Sequence record: NC_103192.1
Source of the DNA: a phage
Length of the DNA: 64,000 nucleotides
Direction: 5' to 3' (one strand)
Shown here: piece after piece, positions 1-61,473 of the stretch
How the letters are laid out: the number at the start of each line of letters is the position of its first letter
How positions within the stretch are numbered: position 1 is the stretch's first letter
Program-made: the position numbers and the translations under genes
The notes under the pieces: generated by a model
The model's database searches: none
What the model saw: only the letters and a program-made list of their open reading frames with translations
Told to the model about the DNA's origin: nothing

Positions 1-339
1 CGTGAGTTCCCTCAAGCATTGGCAGCTGACAAAGAGACCAGATATGGTTGCCTAAGTAAACTGGGTGCGTTCTCCCGCTGGGAGCACTTATCTCCGAGAG
101 GTATTGTCTACGGAATCAATCTGTATACTCAGTTCTACCCAGGACCTAATGCTGAATATTTCTCAATCCTGAAAGGCTTTGAGCTAGTCAATAAGGTATT
201 CAGTGGATCGACTTTACCATTCTACATCCCTAAGATCGGGTGCGGCATAGGCGGTTTGAAGTGGGAGCACGTAGAGGACGTTATTAACCTTGCCACTTTT
301 GATATAGATATTATCGTGGTGGAGTACAAAGAGTGTTGA
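1..339 (+). CDS. Macrodomain protein, TARG1/DarG-like (5' end lies outside window)
   Basis: Frame is open to the window edge; C-terminal motif YIPKIGCGIGGLKWEHV...DIDIIVVEY resembles, from memory, the TARG1/OARD1 macrodomain signature PRIGCGLDRLQWENV...ITVYTL. Confidence 0.45.
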   Translation, partial: REFPQALAADKETRYGCLSKLGAFSRWEHLSPRGIVYGINLYTQFYPGPNAEYFSILKGFELVNKVFSGSTLPFYIPKIGCGIGGLKWEHVEDVINLATFDIDIIVVEYKEC

Positions 340-590
340 CAGATATATTTTAAGGTGGTATAGTCACCACAACGATTAAGACAGAGGAGCACTATGGAGA
401 CTAAAATCTTAATTCTAGCTGTGATAGATACAACAGAAGGAGCCATGTTTGAATCTGCAGGAGGGTATTTCTACCTGCCCTACGGAAAAAGAACTTCCGA
501 GCCGAGTAAAGATTCAATCCTCAAAGTGTTCCCGTGTGCTTTCTGGCTGGAGATTCTGGTAGAAGATTGCAGAGGACTAGGGAGATAATT

Positions 591-785
591 ATGAGAAACA
601 AGAAAGAGCTTTACTCTGGTGAGTGGATAAACGATCAACAGGTAGGAGAGGTAACCTGCTTCCGGTGCTTTACTCGGTACAATCTTAAAACTGCACCAAA
701 AAGTGTTCCAAAGACTGATGGTTATTACATAAAAGAACCTCATTGCCCAAAATGTAAATGCCGATTGTACTGGAGCAATCTGTAA
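591..785 (+). CDS. Small zinc-ribbon protein (64 aa)
   Basis: ATG preceded by ggagataatt; two Cys pairs CFRC...CPKCKC; start moved inward from the 534 ORF. Confidence 0.5.
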   Translation: MRNKKELYSGEWINDQQVGEVTCFRCFTRYNLKTAPKSVPKTDGYYIKEPHCPKCKCRLYWSNL

Positions 786-848
786 GAGGTTGACATCTGA
801 AAACTGTAGTGTATAATATACGCATAAACTAACAGAGAGTGATGTATT

Positions 849-1040
849 ATGGTAATTTTTAACCGAGATGGTATCATAGTTAGACAGCACCCGTTCCTTG
901 AATACTATCAAATTGAGCAATGGTGTTATGGTGATTGCAGCCATTCTTATGGGCAAAGTTGGGGATATCGTACAGTTTTTGAATCAACAGACATTGATAA
1001 GGTAAGACAGAAAGTTTTAGAACTTATTAACAACAAGTGA
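849..1040 (+). CDS. Hypothetical early protein
   Basis: ORF with upstream gagagtga SD-like sequence; first gene of a tightly packed run. Confidence 0.45.
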   Translation: MVIFNRDGIIVRQHPFLEYYQIEQWCYGDCSHSYGQSWGYRTVFESTDIDKVRQKVLELINNK

Positions 1041-1047
1041 GTATGAT

Positions 1048-1380
1048 ATGGTAACATTAGAAAGACGTAAAGCTATCGCCGCCACACTGGCAGACATCTT
1101 TTGGGATTGCAACTTAAAAGATACCCGAAATTGTGGCGCATCTGTAGATGTATTATTCCCACGGCCCACCATTGTTGCAATGGGAAACCTGTTAAACGTG
1201 GTGTACGGAGCATGGGACAAAGAAGGTGGATTCTATATCTGGCAACCTGACTACGGGGCCTGGAAAGAGGTAAGGGGTGCGGATGACTTTGGGCCTACAG
1301 TTGCTAAGATGGATGGCTGGGAAATTTATGTTGGAAATGACATGAAGCTGAAAGGCGAGATTGTTTACTGGCTACCTTAA
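1048..1380 (+). CDS. Hypothetical early protein
   Basis: ORF 7 nt after the previous stop; no recognisable motif. Confidence 0.45.
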   Translation: MVTLERRKAIAATLADIFWDCNLKDTRNCGASVDVLFPRPTIVAMGNLLNVVYGAWDKEGGFYIWQPDYGAWKEVRGADDFGPTVAKMDGWEIYVGNDMKLKGEIVYWLP

Positions 1381-1389
1381 GGGTAAAGT

Positions 1390-1635
1390 ATGAACACAGA
1401 GTGGACATTTGTAGACGGCGTTAAAAACATGCCTCTTGGAAAGTATATCGTAGCCATGGCTGATAAGGATGGCAATGTGGATTTCGGAGCTTGCGAGGTT
1501 GTTCTTGCAGGATCTGGTAACTATGTGGACAAAACCGGGATAATTAACGGTCAGTTCTACTTTGATCACAACCCTGTTGTAGCGTATATGGCTATGCCAG
1601 AGTTTAAGTTCCCAAAGGAGGGTGCTGATGTTTAA
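1390..1635 (+). CDS. Hypothetical early protein
   Basis: ORF with aagggtaaag SD; no recognisable motif. Confidence 0.45.
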   Translation: MNTEWTFVDGVKNMPLGKYIVAMADKDGNVDFGACEVVLAGSGNYVDKTGIINGQFYFDHNPVVAYMAMPEFKFPKEGADV

Positions 1636-1825
1636 GCTTAAATCCGCATGGAACATTGCTGTGGGTGATGAGATCCGTATCCCAGGGGGAAAGACCATTA
1701 TGAAGATATCTCGTATCGAGTACGAAGGTGATCGTGTATTTCATATCTTTGCAGAAGATGGTCGAGAAATTTATATACAGGCAGGCTCTCACATCTATAT
1801 TCGTAAGAAAGGGGACGACAAATGA
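1622..1825 (+). CDS. Hypothetical early protein
   Basis: Start overlaps upstream gene; SD aaggaggg. Confidence 0.45.
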   Translation: MLMFKLKSAWNIAVGDEIRIPGGKTIMKISRIEYEGDRVFHIFAEDGREIYIQAGSHIYIRKKGDDK

Positions 1826-2151
1826 CAGAGATCATCGTTTCAACTGCAGGGTATGTATTCCTGACAATCATTGCACTGACTATTTTGGTGACAGTGTATG
1901 GGTTTGTTATCCTTCCTATCCTTGAGACATTTAGTTTGTGTCGGTGTTGGAGAAAAGCTTACGGTCCACAACCATGGAAGGACTGGCCCCACCTGGTGCG
2001 CTTAGCGTTCTCTTATGCTTACGATCACTCCAGCAGTGCATGCATAACCGGATACCACGCCCACAACTGGAGCTGGGAAGGGTTGAGGAAATGGAATGTT
2101 ACAAAGACCATACCTCTGCGCATGTACAAACCTAAAAACAAAGACAGCTGA
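1822..2151 (+). CDS. Hypothetical membrane protein
   Basis: ATGA start/stop overlap; N-terminal hydrophobic stretch VFLTIIALTILVTVYGFVILPIL. Confidence 0.45.
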   Translation: MTEIIVSTAGYVFLTIIALTILVTVYGFVILPILETFSLCRCWRKAYGPQPWKDWPHLVRLAFSYAYDHSSSACITGYHAHNWSWEGLRKWNVTKTIPLRMYKPKNKDS

Positions 2152-2454
2152 TACTTGAAAATTCCTGGCATATCAAGTATAAGGGGGATTTCTAAAATGG
2201 ATTTCCTCCTTTTGATATTTCACCAGGCTGGATATTTTAAAATCCTTAGAAAATCAGAAAATGGATCGAAAACTAAAATGGATTTTTTCAAGACAGGCAC
2301 GATAAGCTGCGCTGCTCATTCTATCATTCGCACCGTACTTCAAATCACAGTTCCAGATTTTCCACACACACTCTCGCCCATCTAACAGGACTTTCCCAAC
2401 TTACCTTCGACCTTTTATGACAATAAGTTAATTATTATCAGTAAGTTTTGATAC

Positions 2455-2650
2455 ATCTCTCTCAGTACTCGATCTGTTTTTCATTTCAAAGATTGGATTT
2501 TCTGAAAATTTTTCTCGATAAATTTCTCAGTACTCGATCTGTTTTTCGTTTTCTGAATTGGATTTTCTGGAAATCGTTCCAGCTCTCGACCTGAAATTTT
2601 TGGGGACGAAATCGATTTTTCGTTTTCAGAAATGGATTTTTAAAATTTCT
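2455..2650. repeat. Tandem direct repeats, about 65-bp unit (ctcagtactcgatctgtttttc...ttggattttctg), 2 good copies plus 1 degenerate
   Basis: Near-identical copies readable at about 2462-2520 and 2527-2585; non-coding. Confidence 0.7.
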
Positions 2651-2789
2651 ATATGGGAATATTTTAGTGGATACTATTTTATAGGAAATTGTTACGGAGG
2701 GTAATTAGCATGCTAACTAAATTTATTAAATGCGAAAAGTTCTCATTTAGAATTTTGAATGATAATCATTCTCGTTTGCAGAATAACGG

Positions 2790-3260
2790 GCACCCCCGGT
2801 GATTGTCTCCCGGCCCCTGTTGCCCCGGCTTGTTATTATAGTATCACACAGGACAAAGAAAGCAAAGACTTTTTGCATAAATTTTTAAATGATAATGATA
2901 ACCGTTCTCATTTTATGCAGCGCCCATCCCCGGTGGTTGTCTCCCCCGTCACCGGTGCCTGCCGTCCTTTCGATAGGTATATTGTGCCACCTGGCGGGGC
3001 CGCTGTCAACACTTTTCAAAAAAAAAAAATTCTAACCTGATGCGCTAACCGTTGCAACCTGGCGGGGCCAGCCTGGCAGGTCCGCGCTATAAAGTAAGCA
3101 GCTACAGAAGAGGTACAAAAATGAAAAGTAATATAATCCCCTGGAAAATGTAGCGATCAATGCCGCTGAAGTTATCGCCCTGGTTGAAAAGGCTATGGCG
3201 GGAGCGTTGGAACATAAAGAAGAGTACGAAAAAATGGTGGTTAACCTGGCGGGGGGCGGC
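2790..3260. repeat. GC-rich repeated motifs (CCGGTGRTTGTCTCCC x2; ACCTGGCGGGG x3) in a non-coding tract
   Basis: Motif copies at about 2796, 2929, 2988, 3055, 3243; GC content far above flanking sequence. Confidence 0.6.
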
Positions 3261-3297
3261 AGGTGGATTCTATCATAAAAATAATTTAAAATAGTCG

Positions 3298-3327
3298 TTG
3301 ACAACAAGGTTAATCATGGTATTATTA
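3298..3327 (+). promoter_or_regulatory. Sigma70-like promoter
   Basis: TTGACA, 17-nt spacer, TATTAT-like -10, about 50 nt upstream of the 3377 gene. Confidence 0.5.
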
Positions 3328-3376
3328 CCCTACAAGGTGAACAACACCACACTAATTAACAGAGAGGATAAAAATC

Positions 3377-3574
3377 ATGAACGCCTACGGAATTAAAGTA
3401 CGTCGCAACACTCGCCAGGTGGTCACCGATCAAATGGTTTGCCGGGTGGATGTAACCATCAACAACGGGCAAGGCCTTTATAAATTCTGTCGCGGTCAGA
3501 GCTATACCCTGCAACAGCTTAATCGTTGCGCCCTGACAAAAGGTCAGATCAACCACTGGTTTAATAAAAAATAA
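3377..3574 (+). CDS. Hypothetical early protein
   Basis: SD agagaggat upstream of ATG; own promoter. Confidence 0.5.
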   Translation: MNAYGIKVRRNTRQVVTDQMVCRVDVTINNGQGLYKFCRGQSYTLQQLNRCALTKGQINHWFNKK

Positions 3575-3577
3575 ATA

Positions 3578-3606
3578 TTGACATGTAGTCTGAAACAAAA
3601 CATACT
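3578..3606 (+). promoter_or_regulatory. Sigma70-like promoter
   Basis: TTGACA, 17 nt, CATACT upstream of the 3639 gene. Confidence 0.5.
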
Positions 3607-3638
3607 GAAAGCACAAAAGGCACTAAGAGGATAAAATC

Positions 3639-4037
3639 ATGAAAACCACAACCTTTAATTTTGACAATGCTGACTTCTCTTTTTCTGATGTTAAAAGCTG
3701 CCGCCGTGATCGCGGATTCTACAAGGCCTATAATCTGGTTGGCCTGGACGATGATAATAATTTGCACGAAGTAGCGGAGATCCGGTACTATGCCGCCGCC
3801 AGCGGTAACACTCACTACTGCGTTTTTTGGATACACGACAACAAGAACAATAAGTACGGTTATACTGGCGGCAAGGCGAGCGGTCACGGTTATGATAAAG
3901 CTAACGCAGCACTTGAGAGCGCATTAAATGCTATGGGGATCACTGCCGACGGCTGGATCTACGAAGAAGGGTTTTTGTCGGCACTTGCTGACCACCTAGG
4001 CTATAAAAAGCACATTGTAACATGTGCCCACGAATAA
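3639..4037 (+). CDS. Hypothetical early protein
   Basis: SD aagaggat; 132 aa. Confidence 0.5.
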   Translation: MKTTTFNFDNADFSFSDVKSCRRDRGFYKAYNLVGLDDDNNLHEVAEIRYYAAASGNTHYCVFWIHDNKNNKYGYTGGKASGHGYDKANAALESALNAMGITADGWIYEEGFLSALADHLGYKKHIVTCAHE

Positions 4038-4125
4038 AAAAAAAAATTATTGACACGCTGCAAAATTCAAGTAAACTATGCACAAAAGGCGGGAATGTTT
4101 CCCGCCAACACAAAGGAAAAAGATC

Positions 4126-4521
4126 ATGAATAAGAACGTACGCCGCATCATGAACGAACTGGCAAACGATGAAAAAATTATTGACATGCATTTAGTCAAC
4201 ATTTGCCGCCGTTGTGTAACATATAACAACCGCGCCGCAAAAGCGCGTGAGATGAACGCAAAAGGCACCTTAAAGCCCTTTCAGGTGGTTGTAAAATCTA
4301 TAACTAATGCAGCAGGCCAGGCGCATGACCACAACAACGAGAGCGCTAATATTGATCCGTCTTACGTAATGAAACGGATCCGGACTTGCAAGAATAAAGA
4401 GCAGGTGTATAACGTCATAGATTGGCTGGACTCCCTGGGCGATGTGGTTTACAATAGGTTTTCTGCAGCTATCGAGATCCAGCTTGACAGATTGGACGGG
4501 AAAGTACTAAAAACTTATTGA
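4126..4521 (+). CDS. Hypothetical early protein
   Basis: Start moved to the ATG after SD aaggaaaaag; leader has GC hairpin ggcgggaatgtttcccgcc. Confidence 0.5.
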   Translation: MNKNVRRIMNELANDEKIIDMHLVNICRRCVTYNNRAAKAREMNAKGTLKPFQVVVKSITNAAGQAHDHNNESANIDPSYVMKRIRTCKNKEQVYNVIDWLDSLGDVVYNRFSAAIEIQLDRLDGKVLKTY

Positions 4522-4568
4522 GTTTATTTTTAGATGGCCTTGACACCAGGGCCATCAATAAAGTAAAC
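4521..4568 (+). promoter_or_regulatory. Repeated promoter element with -35 TTGACA in the loop of a GATGGCC/GGCCATC hairpin (copy 1)
   Basis: 48-nt element aatttatttttagatggccttgacaccagggccatcaataaagtaaac; near-identical copies at 5151 and 8887. Confidence 0.55.
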
Positions 4569-4600
4569 TAATCTCAGTTAGGCTAAAAGGAGGCTTGAAG

Positions 4601-4720
4601 ATGAGCACTACACGCCAGCACACAAAGGTAACCATCATCGTTTGCATCATTGGTTACATCCTGGCGCAAATGTTGATGGGTAGCGCCAATGATTTCGCAA
4701 AATTTTTCTTAAACTTCTAA
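4601..4720 (+). CDS. Small hydrophobic peptide (39 aa)
   Basis: Strong SD aaaggagg; predicted single TM helix VTIIVCIIGYILAQMLM; below the ORF-track size cutoff. Confidence 0.4.
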   Translation: MSTTRQHTKVTIIVCIIGYILAQMLMGSANDFAKFFLNF

Positions 4721-4800
4721 TTGACAAGCTAACTTAAATCAGTATAATACTAAGCACATAAACGGGAAAACTTCCCAGAACACCAAAAGGAGAAAACATT

Positions 4801-5151
4801 ATGAATACTTCCATCACTATGACCGCCGAAGAAAAAGCCCTGCAGATCGCCGCTCTGAAAAAACAGATTGCAGAACTTGAAGACAAGATCGACAATTTTG
4901 AAATCGACGAAGACAAACACGACGATAAATATGATGAATGGTTAGACGAGATCTACGGCGAAATCATGATCGGAAACATTTCTTTTCTTCCGTCGCGTAT
5001 CCTCAAGGAGCTAGATCCTATCGCTTACCGCTGCGGATTTAGCGACTACATCGACAGCCTAGATATTGAGGACGATGAAGAATACCAGGAATTGCAGACA
5101 GAGCTCGAAGAAGTGAAAGAGGAGCTTTCAGAGCTGGAAGAAAACGAGTAA
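4801..5151 (+). CDS. Hypothetical acidic protein
   Basis: SD aaaaggagaaaac; leader hairpin; very acidic, heptad-like C-terminal half. Confidence 0.5.
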   Translation: MNTSITMTAEEKALQIAALKKQIAELEDKIDNFEIDEDKHDDKYDEWLDEIYGEIMIGNISFLPSRILKELDPIAYRCGFSDYIDSLDIEDDEEYQELQTELEEVKEELSELEENE

Positions 5152-5198
5152 ATTTATTTTTAGATGGCCTTGACACCAGGGCCATCAATAAAGTAAAC
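5151..5198 (+). promoter_or_regulatory. Repeated hairpin-promoter element (copy 2)
   Basis: Same 48-nt element as at 4521. Confidence 0.55.
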
Positions 5199-5240
5199 TT
5201 TATACTGTTAACACTTAACCAATACAGAGGAGTTAAAACC

Positions 5241-5486
5241 ATGGCCGCACTAATTACCAAATATTATGCCCCTACCAACACCAAAAGCGCCCGTATCATG
5301 GTAAAAGGCTTCGGACGTAAAAAGGTGTACACCTGGGATTATTCCCTAGACATGGAAGACAACTACACCAACGCGATGACAGATTTTATTAATGAGCTGA
5401 ACACGCGGATCTTGACAAATTATAAAATTACCGATATTGCCTATGTAGGGGAAGGCGGGATCTGTTTTGTCGGTATCGTCAAATAA
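5241..5486 (+). CDS. Hypothetical early protein
   Basis: SD agaggag upstream of ATG. Confidence 0.5.
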   Translation: MAALITKYYAPTNTKSARIMVKGFGRKKVYTWDYSLDMEDNYTNAMTDFINELNTRILTNYKITDIAYVGEGGICFVGIVK

Positions 5487-5562
5487 ACTGTTTTTTCGGT
5501 GGTCCTGGTAGCAGGGCCATCTATAAAGATAGTTTATCAACACAATGAAAGGAGAAAGTAAC

Positions 5563-5910
5563 ATGATCAGCGGGGCAAGTTTTATTATTGGCGCTATTGC
5601 TACGGCTTTAATTGTAAACAAGATCCAGGATAAAAAGGAAAGTACCGCCCTTGCAGAATATCCATTTTGGACATTCAACGATAATGAAGATTATATTGTA
5701 AAGTATAAAAATAAAGAAGGTGACCAAGTAACACCGCGACCGATCCCGGCTTACAAAATGCAGGAAACACTGTACCGCCTGGAAGCGGGGGGCGCAAAAA
5801 TTGTAGACTTTTGGGGATACGATCACACAGATCAGGAAGTTATAAAGCGCCGTATCCGGGCTATTCAGGCCAATATCGAAGTTAGTAAGGGGGGAATATA
5901 TGAAGATTAA
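5563..5910 (+). CDS. Hypothetical membrane protein
   Basis: Start moved to the ATG after SD aaaggagaaag; N-terminal TM segment ISGASFIIGAIATALIV. Confidence 0.45.
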   Translation: MISGASFIIGAIATALIVNKIQDKKESTALAEYPFWTFNDNEDYIVKYKNKEGDQVTPRPIPAYKMQETLYRLEAGGAKIVDFWGYDHTDQEVIKRRIRAIQANIEVSKGGIYED

Positions 5911-6097
5911 TTTTGAAAAGATTGTAAAGCGATCTCATGATTCCGAAGAGCTGCCGGAACGCCGCCAGCGTAACAATAAACTGAATAAGCCAAAAAGATT
6001 TGGGAAGATCTGGCGGAATCATTATGATCGCAAATTACCGGGCCTGCTTTTGGAACGTGAACGACAGGCGGAACGATACCGCCACAAAGGCAAATAA
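5900..6097 (+). CDS. Hypothetical basic protein
   Basis: Overlaps upstream gene; Arg/Lys-rich. Confidence 0.4.
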   Translation: MKINFEKIVKRSHDSEELPERRQRNNKLNKPKRFGKIWRNHYDRKLPGLLLERERQAERYRHKGK

Positions 6098-6105
6098 CAA
6101 CCAAC

Positions 6106-6133
6106 GCCCCGCCATTGTGCGGGGCTTTTTATT
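6106..6133 (+). terminator. Rho-independent terminator
   Basis: gccccgccattgtgcggggc hairpin followed by a T-run. Confidence 0.6.
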
Positions 6134-6278
6134 TCTATCCTACGAATAGCGCCCCTGGTTGGCCCCACAAACGCCACAAAAGCCCCTACCTATGCAATCC
6201 CCTTTCTTAATCTGAAAACATCACCCAGGGCCGTTTTATGGCGTTAAAAATATTATTGACAGTTATTTTATTTAAAGC

Positions 6279-6307
6279 TTGACACCTTGGAATAGTCCGG
6301 ATATACT
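6279..6307 (+). promoter_or_regulatory. Sigma70-like promoter
   Basis: TTGACA, 17 nt, TATACT. Confidence 0.5.
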
Positions 6308-6342
6308 AGCCACATCAAAGCAAGAAGGAAGGAGTAAACGCC

Positions 6343-6603
6343 ATGCGTAAATTGAAAAATTTTGATAAGGTCGATGCAGTACTAAATAATTTTTACTACT
6401 GCAATAATAAAGCCGTTTGGTGGCGTGATAGTTCCACCGATAAAGTTAAAGCGCGCTTTCTCCAGGGGCACTGGCAAGGCCGCCCAGTGATTAAAATCTT
6501 GGGGCAATTGGTAGCGTTTAAAAATTGCCGCCGTGTTGATGACGTTGAAGAGATTTTAAACATTTTGCGCCACAATAATTTAAAAAATAGTGTTGACAAG
6601 TAA
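6343..6603 (+). CDS. Hypothetical early protein
   Basis: SD aaggaaggag. Confidence 0.5.
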   Translation: MRKLKNFDKVDAVLNNFYYCNNKAVWWRDSSTDKVKARFLQGHWQGRPVIKILGQLVAFKNCRRVDDVEEILNILRHNNLKNSVDK

Positions 6604-6675
6604 GTATCAATAAGTATACTTAAACACAGGCGGGAAAACTTCCCGCCACTAACAAAGAAAATAGGAGAAAATATC

Positions 6676-7299
6676 ATGACCACCGTTAACATTACCACAG
6701 GTTACAATTTAGCTTTCGACGTGCTGACCGACGAACAAAAAGAAAAAGCCGTTGAAATGGTCCGAGAAAGAGAAGAACACAGCGGGGATAACTTTTTTGC
6801 AGAAAGTGTAATTGAAGACTATAAAGAATATGTCTTTCCAGAGTATGGCCTTGAAGATACCAAGGTACATTGGTCCGGCTTTTGGTGTCAGGGTGACGGC
6901 GCGTCAATCAGTGCGGAAAACGTGGATTTAGAAAAATTCTTGCGTAAAGTCAAGTCTCTGACTAAATTTCGCTCAATTCGTCACTTGTTCGGCACAATGC
7001 ACGATGGCGAACTATCCGCAAGTGTTGAGCGTGATCCATATAGCCGCTATAGCCACGAAAACACTGTAAACGGGTACATCGATACTACATGGCTAGACCT
7101 GACCGCCAAACAAGAAGATAAAGTGGAAGATTTGGAAGAACTGATCACCGAGACGGTACGGGAGCTATCCCGCAAGGTTTACGTAGACTTGGAAGCGGCC
7201 TATTTGGAGCAATTCACATCTGAAAACCTGATCAACCTTATTAAGGACAATGATTGGCGGTTTGATGTAGATGAACATGGCGAGATGACTTTTTCATAA
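6676..7299 (+). CDS. Hypothetical early protein (207 aa)
   Basis: SD aataggag; leader GC hairpin ggcgggaaaacttcccgcc. Confidence 0.5.
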   Translation: MTTVNITTGYNLAFDVLTDEQKEKAVEMVREREEHSGDNFFAESVIEDYKEYVFPEYGLEDTKVHWSGFWCQGDGASISAENVDLEKFLRKVKSLTKFRSIRHLFGTMHDGELSASVERDPYSRYSHENTVNGYIDTTWLDLTAKQEDKVEDLEELITETVRELSRKVYVDLEAAYLEQFTSENLINLIKDNDWRFDVDEHGEMTFS

Positions 7300-7388
7300 A
7301 TAAAGTGTTGCAATAACCTAAAAACCTGCTATATTAAAACTCAAGGGGGCAAGACGTTTGCCCCACACAAAACAAAGAGGAAAACATT

Positions 7389-7769
7389 ATGAAAAACACT
7401 ACTAAAGCTATTGACACCGTTATGTTTAACCTGGTTACCTTTCGCGAGGATATGAAAGATCTTCCACGTGAAACAGTGTGCGATCACATTGAAAACTATC
7501 GCAAACTAATCAAAGAGTTGCCTTTAAAACGTGACCAGTATGCGGCTAACGCTATGCTCAACGCCATGATCAAAAAGATGATTCAGTGTGATTTAACCCT
7601 GGCCTATGATTATGCAGGTGGTCGTTTTGCAGTATATAATCAGCCCGTGCCTGGTATGGGCACCACCGAAGAATTGCACGCGCTCAATCTAAAACAAGAC
7701 GTGTGGGATAGTATGCCTCGCGTGGTGGTGTGGGCAGAAAGCGGAAAGATTTACGGCGATAATTTTTAA
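7389..7769 (+). CDS. Hypothetical early protein
   Basis: SD aaagagg; leader hairpin gggggcaagacgtttgcccc. Confidence 0.5.
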   Translation: MKNTTKAIDTVMFNLVTFREDMKDLPRETVCDHIENYRKLIKELPLKRDQYAANAMLNAMIKKMIQCDLTLAYDYAGGRFAVYNQPVPGMGTTEELHALNLKQDVWDSMPRVVVWAESGKIYGDNF

Positions 7770-7780
7770 TCAAGAACAGA

Positions 7781-7806
7781 CGGCGGCATATTTGCCGCCT
7801 TATTGT
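7781..7806 (+). terminator. Rho-independent terminator
   Basis: cggcggcatatttgccgcc hairpin followed by ttatt. Confidence 0.55.
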
Positions 7807-7835
7807 TAAACAGAACTGCAAAAGAGGTACATAGA

Positions 7836-8207
7836 ATGGAATTTATTATTTTGGCTGTATTAGTTGCCTTGTTTAACGCCTGGATCGCTGGCAAGATGGG
7901 TAGATCCGCCTTTTTATGGTTTATTATATCTATTTTCCTGGGGGTGGTTGCAACTATTGTATTAGTTATCCTTGCAATTGTTGACAAGGGCGATAATAGA
8001 AAGGGTAAAGTATTTTCAGACCTGTACGACGCTCAAACGTTTGTCAACGCATATTATAGTGATCTTCCAGTCTCCCTACGCTGCAGCCTGGCACAACAAG
8101 TTTTCGATGAGGCTAAAACCAGAGATCAAGCCCATGAGATATGTTTAACTGAGGCGGATCGCCTATTTGAGAGGAATAGAAAATATGTGGGCCAACCGTT
8201 TAAATAA
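7836..8207 (+). CDS. Hypothetical membrane protein
   Basis: Two predicted TM segments (IILAVLVALFNAWIA; FLWFIISIFLGVVATIVLVILAIV). Confidence 0.45.
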   Translation: MEFIILAVLVALFNAWIAGKMGRSAFLWFIISIFLGVVATIVLVILAIVDKGDNRKGKVFSDLYDAQTFVNAYYSDLPVSLRCSLAQQVFDEAKTRDQAHEICLTEADRLFERNRKYVGQPFK

Positions 8208-8430
8208 TGCCACGTTAATTAATCCCTTTAGTGAAGATTTGAAGCCAGCCGCCTGGCGTGATGGATTCAATACCGAACGCTTTATTTTCAGGCCTGATCT
8301 TGAGGAATTTTATAACAATGGATCGAACAACGACAGAGATAATTTTTCTTGTGATGTGCGTAGTGATGGTACTCCTGGGGGCCATTGTAAACCACGTCAC
8401 TACTACCAGGAGGAAAGGGGGAGACGATGA
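8185..8430 (+). CDS. Hypothetical early protein
   Basis: ORF overlapping upstream gene; start is a guess. Confidence 0.35.
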   Translation: MWANRLNNATLINPFSEDLKPAAWRDGFNTERFIFRPDLEEFYNNGSNNDRDNFSCDVRSDGTPGGHCKPRHYYQEERGRR

Positions 8431-8546
8431 CACCCAAGGATAAGCCACGCACCGATAAGGCGCGCCGTGTTATGGTGTGGCTGGAGATCATCGCCCTTGA
8501 AATATTGTTAGGCGTAGGGATGTACTTTATCGCTATAAGTAACTAA
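8427..8546 (+). CDS. Small membrane peptide (39 aa)
   Basis: ATGA overlap with upstream gene; SD ggaggaaaggggg; C-terminal TM; terminator directly downstream. Confidence 0.4.
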   Translation: MTPKDKPRTDKARRVMVWLEIIALEILLGVGMYFIAISN

Positions 8547-8547
8547 G

Positions 8548-8580
8548 AACGGCCCCCGATCATGGGGCTTATCTTTTTAA
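8548..8580 (+). terminator. Rho-independent terminator
   Basis: ggcccccgatcatggggc hairpin followed by a T-run. Confidence 0.55.
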
Positions 8581-8685
8581 AAAATTTTTCTTCTAGGGTG
8601 TTGCAATCCGGTCCGAGATGTGGATAATGACAATCAACGGGGAGCCAATCCCCACCAACACAAAAAACCAGAAAGGAGAAACAAA

Positions 8686-8886
8686 ATGAGCAACAATATC
8701 CGCGTTATTAACTTCAAAAAAGAAGAAAAAATTGCCGTGCTGATTGACGGTCAAGAAATCTTCAAGGGCGATTATGAAGATCATCAAACGGCGATTAGTA
8801 TCACTCGCGTGATCGGTTACCATAATTTCTACCCCCAAGGCGCTGAGGCAGCAGTTAAACGAATCAAAGAGATTGTAGGCCTGTAA
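8686..8886 (+). CDS. Hypothetical early protein
   Basis: SD aaaggag; leader hairpin ggggagccaatcccc plus CA-rich linker. Confidence 0.5.
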   Translation: MSNNIRVINFKKEEKIAVLIDGQEIFKGDYEDHQTAISITRVIGYHNFYPQGAEAAVKRIKEIVGL

Positions 8887-8935
8887 AATTTATTTTTAGA
8901 TGGCCTTGACATCAGGGCCATCAATAAAGTAAATT
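8887..8935 (+). promoter_or_regulatory. Repeated hairpin-promoter element (copy 3)
   Basis: Same 48-nt element as at 4521 and 5151, with one C-to-T change in the loop. Confidence 0.55.
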
Positions 8936-8977
8936 TAAACCCTGTTAAAATAATCAGTGCAAAAAGGAGTAATGATC

Positions 8978-9277
8978 ATGTTTATACCCGCCAATAATCT
9001 TTATTTCTTTGATGGTCAGATCGTAGACGGTGTGGAAGTCGAGATCACTGGATGTCAAGGCGGTCAGGCAATGATCTTTCGCAATAGTGCCTTTAACGAT
9101 CAATTCATTACAATGACCATGGAAGTTAAAAAGCTGGACGATAAGAAAACGCTCATTGACTATTCCGTGAAAGATCATCCAGACTACCACATGATCTATG
9201 GTGATTTGTGCATTGTTGACCGTGACAAGGTGGGCGGCATTGTGATCGCTATTGTGAACGATGTTTTCTCAAACTAA
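8978..9277 (+). CDS. Hypothetical early protein
   Basis: SD aaaaggag; start moved to the third in-frame ATG. Confidence 0.45.
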   Translation: MFIPANNLYFFDGQIVDGVEVEITGCQGGQAMIFRNSAFNDQFITMTMEVKKLDDKKTLIDYSVKDHPDYHMIYGDLCIVDRDKVGGIVIAIVNDVFSN

Positions 9278-9294
9278 TTTCAGCAGGTGATTTT

Positions 9295-9645
9295 ATGAAA
9301 GTAAAACTATATTACCTTAATGAGCTTAACCCCCTTGCCCAGGTCCGCGCCCTGGCTAATACCTTGATTTGTGAGAAATCTGCATATTGTGTTGAGCTTA
9401 ACGCCATGCGTGAACGTCTTAAAGGGGGTTACTTTGACATCCATGCTGCAATCAACGGCCTGAATATGGGATTTATACGCTTACGTAACAGCCGCCGGAA
9501 TCTGGCAAGAATGGAACAAGATCCGGCCCACCTTCGTAAGCTGGTTATTGAAAACCATCTGATGTTTAATGCCGAGGGTGATTATTACCATTTTCACCGC
9601 AAACGCTGGTACCGTGGCGGCAATACAGGCAAGAGTGCAAAATAA
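9295..9645 (+). CDS. Hypothetical early protein
   Basis: ORF followed by GC hairpins. Confidence 0.45.
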   Translation: MKVKLYYLNELNPLAQVRALANTLICEKSAYCVELNAMRERLKGGYFDIHAAINGLNMGFIRLRNSRRNLARMEQDPAHLRKLVIENHLMFNAEGDYYHFHRKRWYRGGNTGKSAK

Positions 9646-9846
9646 GGCCCCAGGCAGGGCCTGCAGCGATATAATCACATAAAGGCTATGCGGTTGCATG
9701 GCCTTTATTATTTTAGCGTTACAGCGGCCTCCAAGGCGCTTAAAAATTTTTAAAGAAGTACTTGCATCAAGCCCTACAATATGGATAATAGGACGTGTCA
9801 GGGGGGCGGCCCCCAATCATTAACCAGATAGATAGGAGTTAAAACC

Positions 9847-10131
9847 ATGGCTATTGTTACCGCTGGCGATGTAGTAGAAATGGAAGCAAAATACTTAAAA
9901 GCTGGTATGCATATCATCCGCAATGATCTTGATCTGGTCCTCACTATGGTTGATTATAACCCTGGTCAAGATTATCCAAGCGTTGACTACTTTTTCCAGT
10001 ATGTTGATGAAGAATTAAAAGAGGATGAGGCTTATCGGGGTGAATTTTGTAATTTCTTTTGCCCTGATGAGGTTGTAAAAGTTATTTATCAACCTGGCGT
10101 ACCTTTCCCGTTGCACGCTATCAATAAATAA
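9847..10131 (+). CDS. Hypothetical early protein
   Basis: SD gataggag; terminator hairpin gggccgataaggccc downstream. Confidence 0.5.
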   Translation: MAIVTAGDVVEMEAKYLKAGMHIIRNDLDLVLTMVDYNPGQDYPSVDYFFQYVDEELKEDEAYRGEFCNFFCPDEVVKVIYQPGVPFPLHAINK

Positions 10132-10197
10132 ACCTGGAGGGGCCGATAAGGCCCCCACCCAACCTGAGATTATGAAAATAAAGAGAGACAAATCATC

Positions 10198-10431
10198 ATG
10201 ATGGAACAAATTAAACGCGCTGAGGCTATTAATGGCAATGTGATCTATTTTGTCAGCAAAAACGAAAAAGGCGTACCATATGCGGCGGTAATAGTACAGC
10301 CTGACGGCAATTATTGGTTTACTGTATACGGATCTTATTCTTTCGGGCGTCCGGTGCATGATAGAATTTTGAAAGTAGCGAACCCCACCGGGAAGAATAT
10401 CACGGCAGAAAAATTTTTTGAAAATAATTGA
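10198..10431 (+). CDS. Hypothetical early protein
   Basis: SD aagagaga. Confidence 0.45.
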   Translation: MMEQIKRAEAINGNVIYFVSKNEKGVPYAAVIVQPDGNYWFTVYGSYSFGRPVHDRILKVANPTGKNITAEKFFENN

Positions 10432-10509
10432 CAACGTTTTAAATTAGTTTAAGATGTATCACGTAGGGGCAAGCGCCCTATTAAACGCAACAAGAAGAGG
10501 ATAAACACC

Positions 10510-10749
10510 ATGAAAAGCAGTAAAGGTTATAACGGTTGGAAAAACTTTAATCAGTGGAACGTTGTTCTGTGGATCAATAATGACGAAAGTATGTACTTTT
10601 TCGCCCTGGGCCTGATTAATGAGTGTGGTAATAAAGGTGCGGCGGCTGATTTGATGTGCTACCGTTTGAAACAGGAAGGGATCACCCATACCCCTGACGG
10701 TGTGCCTTATACTAAAACCAATATCCGCGCCGCTATGGTTGGAATGTGA
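10510..10749 (+). CDS. Hypothetical early protein
   Basis: Promoter TTGACA at about 10426; conserved leader stem-loop; SD aagaggat. Confidence 0.5.
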   Translation: MKSSKGYNGWKNFNQWNVVLWINNDESMYFFALGLINECGNKGAAADLMCYRLKQEGITHTPDGVPYTKTNIRAAMVGM

Positions 10750-10838
10750 TAAAATAGCTTGACACTGTTTTTTATTCTGGTATAGTTTATCACATAGGGC
10801 GGCAATAGTGCCGCTCACAACTAAAAAGGGAAATCATC

Positions 10839-11033
10839 ATGGCGCTTAAAAAACTAACAAGCAATACTCGTTGGGATGAAATCGACGGGGAAGTTTACAT
10901 TTTTGCCCGTAAACCAGGGGATCAAAAATGGTCAAAGGCTTTTACTTGCCACCCTGCAACAATAGATCTAATAAAAAGTAAAGGTTTACGTGAAGCAGTA
11001 GCGAGAAGTTTACTGATCCCTTATAAAAAATAG
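10839..11033 (+). CDS. Hypothetical early protein
   Basis: Promoter TTGACA at about 10757; conserved leader stem-loop gcggcaatagtgccgc. Confidence 0.5.
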   Translation: MALKKLTSNTRWDEIDGEVYIFARKPGDQKWSKAFTCHPATIDLIKSKGLREAVARSLLIPYKK

Positions 11034-11093
11034 TTTGACAATATCGCACTAACCTTTAAAATGTTCTCTGTTACGTATCTTTAAAGGTGTAAC

Positions 11094-11273
11094 ATGTTCC
11101 AATCAATCATTGATGTTCTATCAGTCGCTAACAACGTGATGAACGTCATTACAATGATTAAACTTGTTGCGTGGTTTGTTTCTGGGGATTATCGCTATAC
11201 TAAGTGGCGCAAGCCAACCATAAAAGACGTAGCAAAGATCTTGTTTGAAGCAATGACAGAATATTATCTATAA
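11094..11273 (+). CDS. Hypothetical small protein (59 aa)
   Basis: Promoter TTGACA at about 11033; SD aaaggtg; below ORF-track cutoff. Confidence 0.35.
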   Translation: MFQSIIDVLSVANNVMNVITMIKLVAWFVSGDYRYTKWRKPTIKDVAKILFEAMTEYYL

Positions 11274-11369
11274 CGATTATTTTTTGTTGACATCTTGGGA
11301 TTGCTCTTTTACTATTAACGTGACTCGAAGGCCGTAACTGGTACGGCCTGATTCGAAAGGTGAATTAAT

Positions 11370-11570
11370 ATGAAACGTTTTACTTATGGCGTTGTTGGTG
11401 GGTATGTATCTAACCGTTTTTACAATACCGAGCGTGGTGCTAAAAATGCCGCTACCCGTGAACATGGCAATAGTGTGAATTTACAAATTGGTTATATTAG
11501 CAACATTAGTGGTATGTTTATTCCGGTTGCTCAACGCGGCATGTATTGCATAAACTGGATGCCAATGTAA
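11370..11570 (+). CDS. Hypothetical early protein
   Basis: Promoter TTGACA at about 11286; SD gaaaggtg. Confidence 0.45.
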   Translation: MKRFTYGVVGGYVSNRFYNTERGAKNAATREHGNSVNLQIGYISNISGMFIPVAQRGMYCINWMPM

Positions 11571-11585
11571 AAAGGAGTAATAAAA

Positions 11586-11777
11586 ATGAATGCCGAACAA
11601 GTTAGAAAGGTATTGGCGGTACTGCGTTATCATAATCATAGAAAGGTCATAGACGATCCTGATTATGTTGATTCAAGCCTGGAAGAAGGCACATTGCAAG
11701 CTATAAGCCATATGCAAGAATTGCTTAAGCGTATGACAGAGAAAAACAGATCTGATTATATAGGTGACGAGATCTAA
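11586..11777 (+). CDS. Hypothetical early protein
   Basis: SD aaaaggag. Confidence 0.45.
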   Translation: MNAEQVRKVLAVLRYHNHRKVIDDPDYVDSSLEEGTLQAISHMQELLKRMTEKNRSDYIGDEI

Positions 11778-11861
11778 AATAGCTTGCACAATGTATCTGA
11801 TAGTGTAAGATGTATCACGTAGGGCGGCAATGGTGCCGCTCACAACTGGAAGGAAAACACC

Positions 11862-12065
11862 ATGACTACAGCTAACCGCCTGATCGCCGTCCTGAACAAA
11901 GCAAAGGCTAACCGCCTGGATGTTCAAATCAAAGATCAAGCAAATGGCGAGATCCTTGCTACGGTGTCCGATGGCGGTTATGTATCGGAATCATTTTTAT
12001 CAGGGAGCTTAGATCATCTTGTTTGGAAATTAGAAATTATCGTGGAGGATATGCAGATCATCTAA
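11862..12065 (+). CDS. Hypothetical early protein
   Basis: Conserved leader stem-loop gcggcaatggtgccgc; SD ggaaggaaa. Confidence 0.5.
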   Translation: MTTANRLIAVLNKAKANRLDVQIKDQANGEILATVSDGGYVSESFLSGSLDHLVWKLEIIVEDMQII

Positions 12066-12117
12066 TCTTTACAAAACAGGGCTTGCAATGGTCCTGTTTT
12101 TTGTTATACTTATTCTA

Positions 12118-12165
12118 CGGCAGGCACCTGGCGACGGGGGGAGACAATCACCGGGCCTGCCTGTC
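12118..12165. repeat. GC-rich element, inverted copy of the motifs at about 2926-2970
   Basis: cggcaggcacctggcgacggggggagacaatcaccgggcctgcc matches the reverse complement of the 2.9-kb element at roughly 85 percent; self-complementary ends. Confidence 0.5.
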
Positions 12166-12269
12166 ATATAAGAACTATAAAAACCGTTGACATCTGCCAT
12201 GGGGTGGGGTAACATTTATCTTGAAGGGGCAAAAGTGCCCACACAACAACCAGGAGAGAGGAAAACATT

Positions 12270-12542
12270 ATGTCAAGCTGGATTAATCAAGAAGTCGAAT
12301 CACGTTTTAACGCTATTTGGGATCTCATCGAAAAAGAAGACGGAACATCAAGCCCCTACCTCAACAATTTGGAATTCCATTTTGTGGAAGCGATGAACGC
12401 AGAACATGATCACGAAGGTGGTGCGGATGAGTTCGCTAAAGGTTATGGCTTCAACAGCGCCAACGAAATGATCGAGGCGGTTGTACTCCAGGCTGAGGAA
12501 GATTATCAATTAAAAACGCTTGAATTTTGCCGCCGTAAGTAA
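12270..12542 (+). CDS. Hypothetical acidic early protein
   Basis: Promoter TTGACA at about 12186; SD aggagagagg. Confidence 0.5.
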   Translation: MSSWINQEVESRFNAIWDLIEKEDGTSSPYLNNLEFHFVEAMNAEHDHEGGADEFAKGYGFNSANEMIEAVVLQAEEDYQLKTLEFCRRK

Positions 12543-12601
12543 TAAGATAATGACACGGGCCAAAAGGCCCACCAAACCAGAACCGCATAGAGGTAAACAT
12601 C

Positions 12602-12865
12602 ATGAAACGTCTTGACCAGCTCAAACTAGTTCAATATATGGCTTATCGTGTTCTTGAAGTACAGAAAGGTAGCAAAAAAGAGGTTTGCGAAAAAGCGTAC
12701 AAGATCTTTACTCGTAAAAAAGATGATTGGATGTTACGCCAGACCAAAAAAGCCGATATCCTGGGGTACCTGGAAGAAGAGATCCGACTTGAAGAGCAAG
12801 AAGAGATCCGCCGTAGTGAGGCAGATTATCAGGCAGCTTGGGAAAACTGGATGAGCAACAAATAA
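12602..12865 (+). CDS. Hypothetical early protein
   Basis: SD agaggtaaa. Confidence 0.45.
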   Translation: MKRLDQLKLVQYMAYRVLEVQKGSKKEVCEKAYKIFTRKKDDWMLRQTKKADILGYLEEEIRLEEQEEIRRSEADYQAAWENWMSNK

Positions 12866-13008
12866 TACAACAAGTTACGGTCAGGGGGTAATAAAGCCCC
12901 TTGATCACATAAAAATTATGCTATCCCTGGTTGACAGGGATCGGCAGTTTTGCTATATTCTTTTTTGAAGGGAAGTTGTAAGAAAATTAACTAAGAGGTA
13001 AAAACACC

Positions 13009-13428
13009 ATGAACATTAAATCTAATAATCCGGCATATAGCTTTGATAACGCTTTTTGTCACGGTCCGGCGGCGAAAGGATTCGAAATCGATGGTAAACT
13101 AATTATTGTCAATGTTGACGGGGAAGAGGTTGCAGTATATCCGGTGGCAGACGTTAAAAGCCGTTTGCAATGCCGCATGGATGTTACCGCCTACCAGCTT
13201 GATCCGGTCCGCATAGTTGCCCTGGTCCTGGAGGAAGAGATCAAAGCAATGCACCACAGCAACAAGTTTATTGGTGACGCTCAAGATAATATGAAGGTGT
13301 GCCGCCATAAAGTTAATGAAGTGCTTAAAGAATATGGCTTTAAAGATCTGATGATCAAACGTGAGGAAAAATTCCGCTACCGTAACGACCTGGCAAATCG
13401 GATTTTTGAAATATACGAATCATTATAA
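13009..13428 (+). CDS. Hypothetical early protein (139 aa)
   Basis: Promoter TTGACA at about 12932; SD aagaggtaaaaa. Confidence 0.5.
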   Translation: MNIKSNNPAYSFDNAFCHGPAAKGFEIDGKLIIVNVDGEEVAVYPVADVKSRLQCRMDVTAYQLDPVRIVALVLEEEIKAMHHSNKFIGDAQDNMKVCRHKVNEVLKEYGFKDLMIKREEKFRYRNDLANRIFEIYESL

Positions 13429-13446
13429 TTTCTTAACTGAATTATC

Positions 13447-13475
13447 AAGGGGCTTAAAGGCCCCTTTCTTTTTGT
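13447..13475 (+). terminator. Rho-independent terminator
   Basis: aaggggcttaaaggcccctt hairpin plus T-run; ends the plus-strand early block. Confidence 0.65.
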
Positions 13476-14079
13476 CTGCTCTTCTCCTACCATAAACGGC
13501 CCCACCCGGCAAGTGGAATAATTGACTAGCCAGCAATTGCCTGCACTGTACAAACATACAGGTAAAATAGTTATTGCATAACCTTTCATTGTGTGGTAGC
13601 AGTGCCATTTTTACACGTTTTTCCTTCCAAAATTGCACGTAATGCCGCTATTGCATAAATTTTAACCTGATGCATATCTTCAATATCTTGTCAACAACTA
13701 AAAATCTTTATAAGTCATACACTTACACCACCACAAAAGCGTGTTCTACGTGAAAAATCGGGTGTAACTATAGCCGCCAGATCTCAGAATTTACGTACGC
13801 TCACCAGTCTATAGCCTGCTAAGTATTTATTCCAACCATAGAATAACGGAATAGTCAATACCTGCATAAAATAATTATTCGTGTAAACTGCATAACATAA
13901 ATCAGCCAGGGTGTCAACATTTTTCGTAAACATCTCGAAATTATCACGATGAGTTATCATAAACAGAGAAATCTTTAGTCGTCTAATGTTTACTGTACAT
14001 TACTATACTGGCTGGAATCATTAGATGACTAAGAGAAAGATAAGAAATAGTTAACAATGTAATTGTTTTACCTGTAACA

Positions 14080-21815: not shown

Positions 21816-21896
21816 AATGTGTTCCTTTTAAAGAAGAGGGACCAACCCCTCTTTGAAAACAATGATACTAAATCTGAAGCGTTGTGTCAACAGTTT

Positions 21897-40877: not shown

Positions 40878-40936
40878 TATTATAGATTATCTGATACTAT
40901 TAGTCAACACAAAAGTTACCTATCGCTGTGATAGGA

Positions 40937-60600: not shown

Positions 60601-60675
60601 GCCACCCAGTGCCCTGTTAGCTTAGTGGATAAAGCAGCGGCCTTCTAAGCCGTTGACACTGGTTCGAGTCCAGTA
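60601..60675 (+). tRNA. tRNA-Arg (anticodon TCT)
   Basis: Hand-folded cloverleaf: acceptor GCCCTGT/ACGGGGT, anticodon loop CTTCTAA, T-loop TTCGAGT, CCA encoded. Confidence 0.7.
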
Positions 60676-60815
60676 CGGGGTGCCAAGTTCTTTTTAATGT
60701 AGCTTACTTTAGCAGAGTAAATCTTCGGCAAGTGGCGGTAACCACTTTACCGATACCTCATAGTTAGTGGTGAGAACACTAGCTATTTTAAAAAGAATTT
60801 AAATATTAGTATTTA

Positions 60816-61305: not shown

Positions 61306-61310
61306 TTTTT

Positions 61311-61386: not shown

Positions 61387-61387
61387 T

Positions 61388-61462: not shown

Positions 61463-61473
61463 AATAATAAATA

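Follow-up and report, generated by a model that had tools for sequence, protein, structure and literature searches.

What are the GC-rich hairpins that recur just upstream of small early genes in a phage genome: terminators of the preceding genes, or part of the messages that follow? The question is raised by a 64,000-nucleotide (nt) stretch of phage DNA (sequence record NC_103192.1; "the window" refers here to this whole stretch), in which positions 1-13500 hold a + strand run of small, very closely packed genes with many near-consensus sigma-70 promoters. A preliminary description had listed at least ten early genes with a 5' leader composed of a GC hairpin with a stem of 6-8 base pairs (bp), a CA-rich stretch and a Shine-Dalgarno (SD) sequence, and had suggested that these constitute a shared post-transcriptional control element. 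Over 4000-12300 the DNA is 90-94% identical to that of Vequintavirus (rV5-like) myophages of Escherichia coli, including slur16, FFH2, HdK5 and BASEL phages, and the window is from an rV5-like (Vequintavirus) coliphage. As argued below, the hairpins belong to repeated promoter-leader cassettes, and their position is most plausibly explained by a post-transcriptional role at the message's 5' end.

A comparison of the 130 nt preceding each plausible + strand start found one layout in 12 + strand leaders, those with an ATG at 4126, 4801, 6676, 7389, 8686, 9847, 10510, 10839, 11370, 11862, 12270 and 12602. The order is sigma-70 -35 and -10 elements, a gap of 8-15 nt, a GC hairpin with a stem of 5-8 bp, an A/C-rich and T-poor linker, an SD and the ATG. 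The earlier estimate of at least ten leaders is thus borne out, with one (12602) lying outside the range then described and one (4801) being weak, but the lower limit given for the stems was 1 bp too high. Unremarked before was that each hairpin stands at a fixed distance behind a sigma-70 promoter. The gaps between the -10 and the hairpin are 8, 8, 10 (six times), 11, 11, 13 and 15 nt, with a mode of 10, their sequences are unrelated among the cassettes, and 48-57 nt separate the end of the -10 from the ATG in all 12. As this spacing is fixed, the hairpin is tied to transcription initiation. Cassettes with a TTGACA have the form TTGACA, 16-17 nt, TAnnnT, and a promoter score of 10-12 out of 12; of the weaker -35 elements, two are TTGCAA (score 9/12) and the others, TTGCAT, TTGCAC and TTGAAT, match at 3-4 of 6 positions. 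The stems have a G-rich 5' arm (301 G-C versus 74 C-G pairs) and enclose loops of 3-6 nt, giving palindromes of 13-21 nt overall, and at least eight unrelated stem sequences occur among the 12 hairpins, all at the equivalent position. The linker is 56% A, 27% C, 9% G and 8% T, in a window with 29% A, 22% C, 20% G and 29% T. All ten of the proteins scanned that are encoded downstream of cassettes match PHROG families of unknown function, and the genes driven by the cassettes are therefore regarded as real yet uncharacterised.

The folding potential of 22 promoter-proximal segments of 37 nt was compared with that of 300 dinucleotide shuffles. Twelve of the 22 fold at ≤ -8 kcal/mol, as against a shuffle mean of 3.0 and a maximum of 6, and seven fold at ≤ -12 kcal/mol, a level reached by 2.1% of all such segments in the 64 kb (binomial p = 2e-7). 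The leader hairpin pattern exceeds chance. With each leader shuffled separately, z is ≤ -2.4 in eight of the 12, and whole-leader folds fall between -8.5 and -16 kcal/mol in ten. The hairpin is the sole substantial structure in each predicted leader, leaving the SD and AUG unpaired or merely in helices of 2-3 bp. The pattern is also regional, with hairpins coupled to 12 of 22 promoters in the early region versus 2 of 16 elsewhere in the window. Outside the early block, leader hairpins with a promoter are present only at ~21834-21890 (-) and ~40855-40907 (-), with the sequences AAGAGGGGTTGGTCCCTCTT and GGCTCACTTTGTTGGTGAGCC.

That the hairpins might be terminators of upstream genes had been named in the preliminary description as the outcome that would overturn the leader interpretation. 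It is unlikely, as each hairpin begins 8-15 nt past a -10 element and is followed by an A/C tail. The 10 nt behind the hairpin contain 0-3 T in the 12 leaders (mean 0.8) versus 5-8 behind six terminator-like hairpins located after stop codons of the early region (6106, 7782, 8551, 9679, 12073 and 13447), and a + strand scan with a terminator consensus called none of the 12 leader hairpins terminator-like. Being downstream of the -10 and lacking a T-tract, the leader hairpins are not ordinary terminators, and identity with intrinsic terminators was rejected on anatomy. The GenBank records of HdK5 and EdH4 nevertheless label some leader hairpins as terminators; in HdK5 (MK373780), hairpins at 1583-1601 and 7956-7970 that lie downstream of promoters are annotated 'putative transcriptional terminator'. 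The HdK5 labels are probably a mis-annotation that arose from terminator prediction based on hairpins alone.

A related proposal, that the hairpins attenuate or insulate against transcription arriving from upstream, or form 3'-end barriers that stabilise the upstream cistron, and that their position after a promoter simply follows from how the cassette is built, is in our view unlikely. Attenuation or insulation was how the stem-loops of the promoter-early stem-loop (PeSL) cassettes of T4-type phages were first interpreted. The proposal is in keeping with the dense gene packing, from which read-through is to be expected, with the terminator labels in the two GenBank records, and with the observation that PeSL stem-loop 211/210 lowered lacZ output as much as did rrnB T1 (PMC2839356). 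It also draws on a promoterless hairpin, GGGGCC-GATAA-GGCCCC, at 10139..10155 (+), which lies 8 nt past the stop codon of the gene at 9847-10131 and is followed by CACCCAACC and, farther on, by the SD of gene 10198; a hairpin with an A/C tract can therefore also occur inside a transcript. However, in addition to the low T content, and a scan in which none was terminator-like, a hairpin downstream of the -10 is unable to shield its own promoter from incoming polymerases, and, were there a terminator at +25, the cassette's own transcripts would be aborted as well. Nor does attenuation account for a 10-nt spacing to the -10 that is maintained over unrelated spacers and in two phage subfamilies.

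The second of these subfamilies came from a comparison of the window with the orthologous region of eight Vequintavirus genomes and with the early regions of alia, AV126 and KKE7M, three members of the Stephanstirmvirinae. The cassette layout is present in all 11 phage loci, and is found with the same 10-nt spacing in phi92-like and phAPEC8-like phages; the gaps of all promoter-hairpin units peak at 10 (34 units) and 11 nt (19 units). In alia, AV126 and KKE7M a promoter precedes 11-15 hairpins in each 15 kb, the gap is most often 10 nt, the tails are T-poor (1.3-1.6 T versus 2.8-3.3 after other hairpins), and the leader of 10839 and 11862 matches many of their sites. Orthologous alignments of eight leaders from nine genomes have variable columns at 0/48 positions in the -35, 6/48 in the -10, 17/96 in the stems, 16/31 in the loops and 30/107 in the linker, so that loops are approximately three times more variable than stems (Fisher p = 0.0007). 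Pairing is retained through G.U and added G-C pairs, as in GGGGCAA..TTGCCCC, GGGGCGA..TTGCCCC and GGGGCGAG..CTTGCCCC. On the sense strand, wobble G.T (G.U) pairs outnumber A.C mismatches by 6 to 2 and the sense fold is the stabler in 41 versus 21 cases, a comparison that favours RNA structure but is only suggestive. Covariance analysis, proposed in the preliminary description, gave a divided answer. A model built from 21 hairpins of the GGCGG type found 66 + strand copies in 200 kb, and the alignment fitted to it contains 10 double-sided changes versus 2.5 in shuffles (0 of 500 reach it), but the formal covariation score is barely above that of the shuffles (0.124 versus 0.105, with 84% versus 82% of cells paired). 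These statistics are weak because the model mis-registered the GCGGCA subfamily, and the interpretation does not depend on them. In a plain MAFFT alignment of 50 cassettes, the 5' arms are aligned and the 3' arms are not, as the loops differ in length.

The same data bear on whether the hairpin is a functionless passenger of a cassette that spreads by duplication and recombination, its spacing a product of common descent. Many of the cassettes are evident paralogues, ten early promoters do without a hairpin, and the hairpin is weakened or lost in several orthologues, all of which would suit a passenger. A passenger would not, however, be expected to have unrelated stem sequences at the same position, stems three times more conserved than loops, or a T-depleted tract behind the hairpin that is consistent in both subfamilies, and we regard this explanation as very improbable.

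The hairpin, or the inverted repeat that encodes it, might instead be recognised by a protein, either as an operator centred near +14 for a repressor that shuts off early transcription, or as an RNA target, of the boxB/N or put type, for a regulator or an antiterminator. Operators such as lacO1 do lie at an overlapping position. The palindrome GGCGGGAA..TTCCCGCC or GGCGGCA..TGCCGCC is common to most copies in phi92-like and phAPEC8-like phages, and TATCACRTAGGGCGG is kept right behind the -10 across unrelated phage families, both of which could reflect a conserved site. In the window, however, the 12 cassettes have at least eight unrelated stem sequences, and loops of 3-6 nt in palindromes of 13-21 nt do not fit a fixed dimeric DNA site. 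The loops are the least conserved part, which argues against RNA-binding proteins that read the loop, and no Rfam family matches. Recognition by a protein is in our judgement very doubtful, and of the shared post-transcriptional element first suggested, the location in transcribed leaders stands while a single regulator's site is disfavoured, as the stems differ and the loops are the most variable part. At the gathering threshold, Rfam has no match in 1-13500; its only matches in the window lie beyond 60 kb and are transfer RNAs (tRNAs) and two group I introns. CsrA is an unlikely ligand, there being no GGA in the loops; the stems are far too short for RNase III; and the linker, at merely 15-30 nt, was rejected as a Rho loading site.

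Part of the cassette may be more widely distributed. The motif -10, T, TATCACRTAGGGCGG is also present in a T5-like pre-early region and in 42-kb siphophages (sortkaff, IME279), and the promoter and start region thus appear common to unrelated coliphage families. A scan of viral contigs for TATCACRTAGGGCGG found 48 stretches, approximately half of which are chance matches with no promoter. Occurrences right after a -10 include 4907-4921 (-) of locus L014, which corresponds to 4907-4921 of FFH1 (NC_024139), and 3146-3161 of locus L031; in the T5-like pre-early region the motif lies ~106 nt upstream of ORF8 and near A2. A far-reaching version would hold that the promoter, a TATCACRTAG start region and the GGCGG hairpin form an integron-like capture and expression cassette for single genes of virulent phages, common to rV5-, phi92- and phAPEC8-like phages, the T5-like pre-early region and the 42-kb siphophages, in which a dedicated host or phage factor reads the hairpin, for RNA protection or targeted recombination, and the hairpin is not a passive structure; we think this improbable.

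Where related phages differ in gene content, the cassettes coincide with the gene-swap junctions. Collinearity with all eight relatives stops at 10433, where the -35 TTGACA of the 10510 cassette ends. Beyond that base, the -10, hairpin and gene of the window differ from those of the relatives, and homology returns, in three of them, at 10492, the SD of the same cassette. A second junction is within a -35 hexamer at 11035..11041 (+) (TTGACAA), past which the leader has no hairpin in the window but does have one in Mangalyan, where the gene is a different one. Mangalyan also has an extra gene flanked by two copies of the linker and SD of the 12602 leader, and the gene content of 10433-12070 varies among the eight relatives. 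Two further junctions, 9270/9636 and 11767/12070, are outside cassettes. As the junctions mapped within cassettes are in the -35 and in the linker and SD, and not in the hairpin, they fit homologous rather than site-specific recombination. Near-identical promoters and leaders may thus allow homologous recombination to insert, delete and replace gene modules, as has been proposed for the PeSLs of T4-type phages.

Taken as a whole, we give about an even chance to the cassette being a mobile unit for early expression in which the hairpin serves as a cap-like 5' stabiliser, or as an insulator, of its own mRNA. Transcription would start 6-8 nt past the -10, at a pyrimidine-purine step, and the hairpin would then be the first structure in the mRNA, extending from approximately +2/+5 to +20/+25 with ~1-4 unpaired nucleotides ahead of it. 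From the position of the -10 and this start rule, a 5' tail of 1-4 nt, mostly 3-4, is predicted for 10 of the 12 leaders. We infer that a hairpin so placed would slow 5'-end-dependent decay by RppH and RNase E, as does an ompA-type 5' stem-loop, and on transcripts that read through from upstream it could stop 3' exonucleases. A 5' hairpin is known to impede RppH and to stabilise bla mRNA (PMC3997798). The linker would contribute by preventing intrinsic termination, by offering few U-containing sites to RNase E and by leaving the SD unpaired. That an A/C linker provides no U-tract for a terminator, does not pair with itself and keeps the SD open is clear logic under any of the readings discussed.

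The fixed distance to the -10, which points to initiation, could also mean that the nascent hairpin acts on transcription itself, preventing backtracking or promoter-proximal pausing after promoter escape and so raising productive initiation from strong early promoters. The G-rich 5' arm, with its excess of G-C over C-G pairs, would make the early RNA-DNA hybrid strong. Consensus promoters of the region that are just as strong nevertheless have no hairpin, we know of no established example of such a promoter-escape hairpin, and there seems very little probability that this is its function.

Several considerations weigh against stabilisation by a 5' hairpin. Ten other early promoters in the block have no hairpin at all (their leaders are mostly 29-42 nt, with two of 49-51), and the hairpin is therefore not needed for early expression. 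Four of the 12 leaders, those of 4801, 9847, 10510 and 12270, are not individually significant in the folding test, the formal covariation is weak, and in some orthologues the hairpin is weakened or lost. As many cassettes are recent paralogues, part of the regularity in spacing could have been inherited rather than selected. One PeSL stem-loop was, according to its authors, a strong terminator in a reporter (PMC2839356). RppH and RNase E need at least 2 unpaired 5' nucleotides and prefer 3 or more (PMC8833179), so that with predicted tails of 3-4 nt the protection may be partial or absent. Neither a mapped transcription start nor transcriptome data for any Vequintavirus were found in the literature searched. 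Protection of the 5' end by the hairpin is, on balance, plausible but borderline.

The individual cassettes, all on the + strand, differ considerably in strength. Cassette 1 (4050..4128) has a -35 TTGACA at 4050-4055, a -10 TAAACT at 4072-4077 and an 8-bp hairpin, GGCGGGAATGTTTCCCGCC, at 4088-4106, followed by the A/C linker, an SD at 4114 and the ATG at 4126; its leader has a minimum free energy of -14.6 (z -4.3) and orthologues in eight relatives. In cassette 2 (4721..4803; -35 TTGACA, -10 TATAAT at 4743-4748, ATG 4801), which is weak, the gap is 15 nt and the 5-bp hairpin GGGAAAACTTCCC at 4764-4776 has only -4 to -6 kcal/mol (z -1.7). Its leader matches that of 6676 at ~72%, and it has the look of a paralogue of cassette 3 that has decayed. 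The latter, at 6593..6678 (-35 TTGACA, -10 TATACT at 6615-6620, ATG 6676), has the hairpin GGCGGGAAAACTTCCCGCC at 6629-6647 and a z of -4.6.

Cassettes 4 and 5 are those with a -35 TTGCAA. In cassette 4 (7308..7391; -10 TATATT at 7330-7335, ATG 7389; z -3.2), hairpin GGGGCAAGACGTTTGCCCC at 7346-7364 precedes the linker ACACAAAACAAAG, and in orthologues the stem is kept by G.U pairs and added G-C pairs. Cassette 5 (8601..8688; -10 GATAAT at 8623-8628, ATG 8686; z -2.9) has hairpin GGGGAGCCAATCCCC at 8639-8653 and linker ACCAACACAAAAAACC. The four hairpins quoted in the preliminary description are all in place (ggcgggaaaacttcccgcc at 6629-6647, gggggcaagacgtttgcccc at 7345-7364, ggggagccaatcccc at 8639-8653 and gcggcaatagtgccgc at 10799-10814), and the CA-rich stretches it quoted directly follow the hairpins. 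Cassette 6 (9762..9849; ATG 9847) combines a weak -35, TTGCAT, with a -10 GATAAT at 9784-9789 and hairpin GGGGGGCGGCCCCC at 9801-9814, and with a z of -0.1 is not significant alone. In two relatives (~8390-8410 in locus L007 and ~7285-7300 in HdK5) this hairpin is destroyed by expansion of a poly-G tract to up to 17 G, which is either an artefact of sequencing or the mark of a genuine hotspot of slippage.

Cassette 7 (10428..10512) has a -35 TTGACA at 10428-10433, a -10 TAAGAT, hairpin GGGGCAAGCGCCCT at 10466-10479 and its ATG at 10510. Cassette 8 (10759..10841; -35 TTGACA, -10 TATAGT at 10781-10786, ATG 10839; z -4.1) has an 8-bp hairpin with one G.U pair, GGGCGGCAATAGTGCCGCTC, at 10797-10816 and linker ACAACTAAAAAG, and cassette 10 (11784..11864; weak -35 TTGCAC, -10 TAAGAT at 11806-11811, ATG 11862; z -2.5) has hairpin GGGCGGCAATGGTGCCGCTC at 11822-11841. 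These two, and not three as first reported, are near-identical, with 33 of 35 positions the same between 10788-10822 and 11813-11847; the supposed third leader, that of 10510, shares the -10, GTATCACGTAGGG and the leader end alone, and its hairpin differs. Between them, cassette 9 (11287..11372; -35 TTGACA, -10 TACTAT at 11310-11315, ATG 11370; z -3.6) has hairpin AGGCCGTAACTGGTACGGCCT at 11329-11349, extended by an outer TCGA helix, and is without a homologue in the 11 loci of related phages that were compared. The last two are cassette 11 (12187..12272; -35 TTGACA, -10 TAACAT at 12210-12215, ATG 12270; z -1.8), with hairpin GGGCAAAAGTGCCC at 12227-12240 and linker ACACAACAACC, and cassette 12 (12520..12604; -35 TTGAAT, -10 TAAGAT at 12543-12548, ATG 12602; z -2.8), with hairpin GGGCCAAAAGGCCC at 12557-12570 and linker ACCAAACCAGAACC.

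A second cassette class is formed by a 51-nt repeat at 4520..4570 (+), in which a T-run is followed by a hairpin, ATGGCC/GGCCAT, that has the -35 TTGACA in its loop, and then by the -10 TAAACT. Further copies are at 5150-5200 and 8886-8936, the three being 94-100% identical, and a degenerate copy (71%) is at 5485-5535. These repeats sit directly after stop codons. Other repeats in and around the early block include three to four direct repeats of 65-74 nt, 77-84% identical, at 2455-2640, a stretch poor in open reading frames upstream of the early genes; at the equivalent place the record of alia has repeat_region features (locus L009, 2776-3043). A long GC-rich inverted repeat (ggcaggc...gcctgcc) at 12120-12162 has the terminator at 12073-12100 on one side and the promoter at 12187 on the other. 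Twenty-one GenBank records titled 'Campylobacter phage' (MG0656xx) are ~92% identical to the early region, and their host label looks doubtful. Towards the end of the window there are six matches to tRNA models at 60611-61547, four with 60-80 bits and two weak at 35-39 bits, and group I introns at 63070-63348 and 63706-63930 (Rfam, 84 and 93 bits).

If this account of the cassettes is correct, the PeSL idea, of cassettes that both express and shuffle accessory genes, would reach beyond T4-type phages to two more subfamilies, both of large coliphages much used in phage therapy and biocontrol, and would include a PeSL-like variant whose hairpin is part of the mRNA leader. The arrangement of strong promoter, 5' hairpin, A/C-only spacer and SD would be a compact natural design for high, context-independent expression. 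The question of whether virulent phages shield their early mRNAs from RNase E and RppH by 5' hairpins becomes directly testable. There is also a consequence for annotation, as these leader hairpins get labelled terminators in GenBank records. The leaders are not described in the rV5 paper or its supplement, and no description was found in the literature for phi92, phAPEC8 or PVP-SE1.

Several known systems resemble these cassettes in part. Intrinsic terminators have a GC-rich hairpin comparable in size and energy to those described here, and some records annotate the leader hairpins as such, but the hairpins of the window have no U-tract and follow a -10 element rather than ending a transcription unit. 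Hairpins of the boxB/nut type have a conserved loop sequence and size, whereas the loops here are unrelated and vary at more than half of their columns. Integron gene cassettes, the analogy drawn by the PeSL authors, are likewise single small genes exchanged as modules beside a recurring structured element; in contrast, no integrase is present here and the junctions avoid the hairpin. In the transcript of T7 gene 10 (phi10), a GC hairpin comes first, ahead of a leader free of structure and a strong SD, and the hairpin has been reported to raise mRNA stability. This transcript is made from a T7 RNA polymerase promoter for a single late gene, whereas the cassettes of the window are repeated and have host promoters.

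Stabilising stem-loops at the 5' terminus of the ompA and papA mRNAs were reportedly described by Emory, Bouvet and Belasco in 1992. For this type, the hairpin must be no more than ~2-4 unpaired nucleotides from the true 5' end. The likeness is a simple hairpin predicted to be near the 5' end of the 5' untranslated region, with an accessible ribosome site after it, in which structure matters and sequence does not, in agreement with the unrelated stems of the window and with the conservation of stems over loops. The 5' ends in the window are predicted, with tails of 3-4 nt that are at the upper limit for protection, and the hairpin differs from the ompA type in being joined to a promoter and in recurring as a mobile cassette. 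The E. coli examples, ompA and papA, are reviewed in PMC3997798.

The closest known system is the PeSL cassette of T4-type phages, described by Arbiol et al. 2010 (PMC2839356) and Comeau et al. 2014 (PMC4122927). A PeSL is composed of a sigma-70 promoter, a stem-loop with a G-run and a C-run, an SD and an ATG. The genes on either side are of unknown function, the regions concerned are hyperplastic, and the PeSLs mediate modular shuffling there. Five subclasses are distinguished by where the stem-loop is placed, and its possible positions include one over the -35 and one after the -10 (PMC2839356; PMC4122927). The cassettes of the window have the near-consensus sigma-70 early promoter and the adjacent stable G-run/C-run stem-loop, end with the SD and ATG of small genes whose function is unknown, in a region of variable gene content, are present in many copies, and contain indel and replacement junctions between close relatives; the 51-nt class, in which the hairpin surrounds the -35, corresponds to one of the published PeSL subclasses. 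They differ in lineage, being from Vequintavirinae and Stephanstirmvirinae rather than T4-type myoviruses, and in the hairpin. The PeSL stem-loop, which has been described as a terminator, usually covers the -10 or occupies the spacer that separates it from the -35, whereas that of the window is at a fixed 8-15 nt after the -10, inside the transcript, has a T-depleted A/C tail and lacks the anatomy of a terminator. Excised mini-circles are a feature of the PeSL side. As they share the anatomy and the recombination pattern of PeSLs, but not the terminator anatomy or the lineage, the cassettes are best described as a PeSL-like variant rather than as members of the PeSL family.

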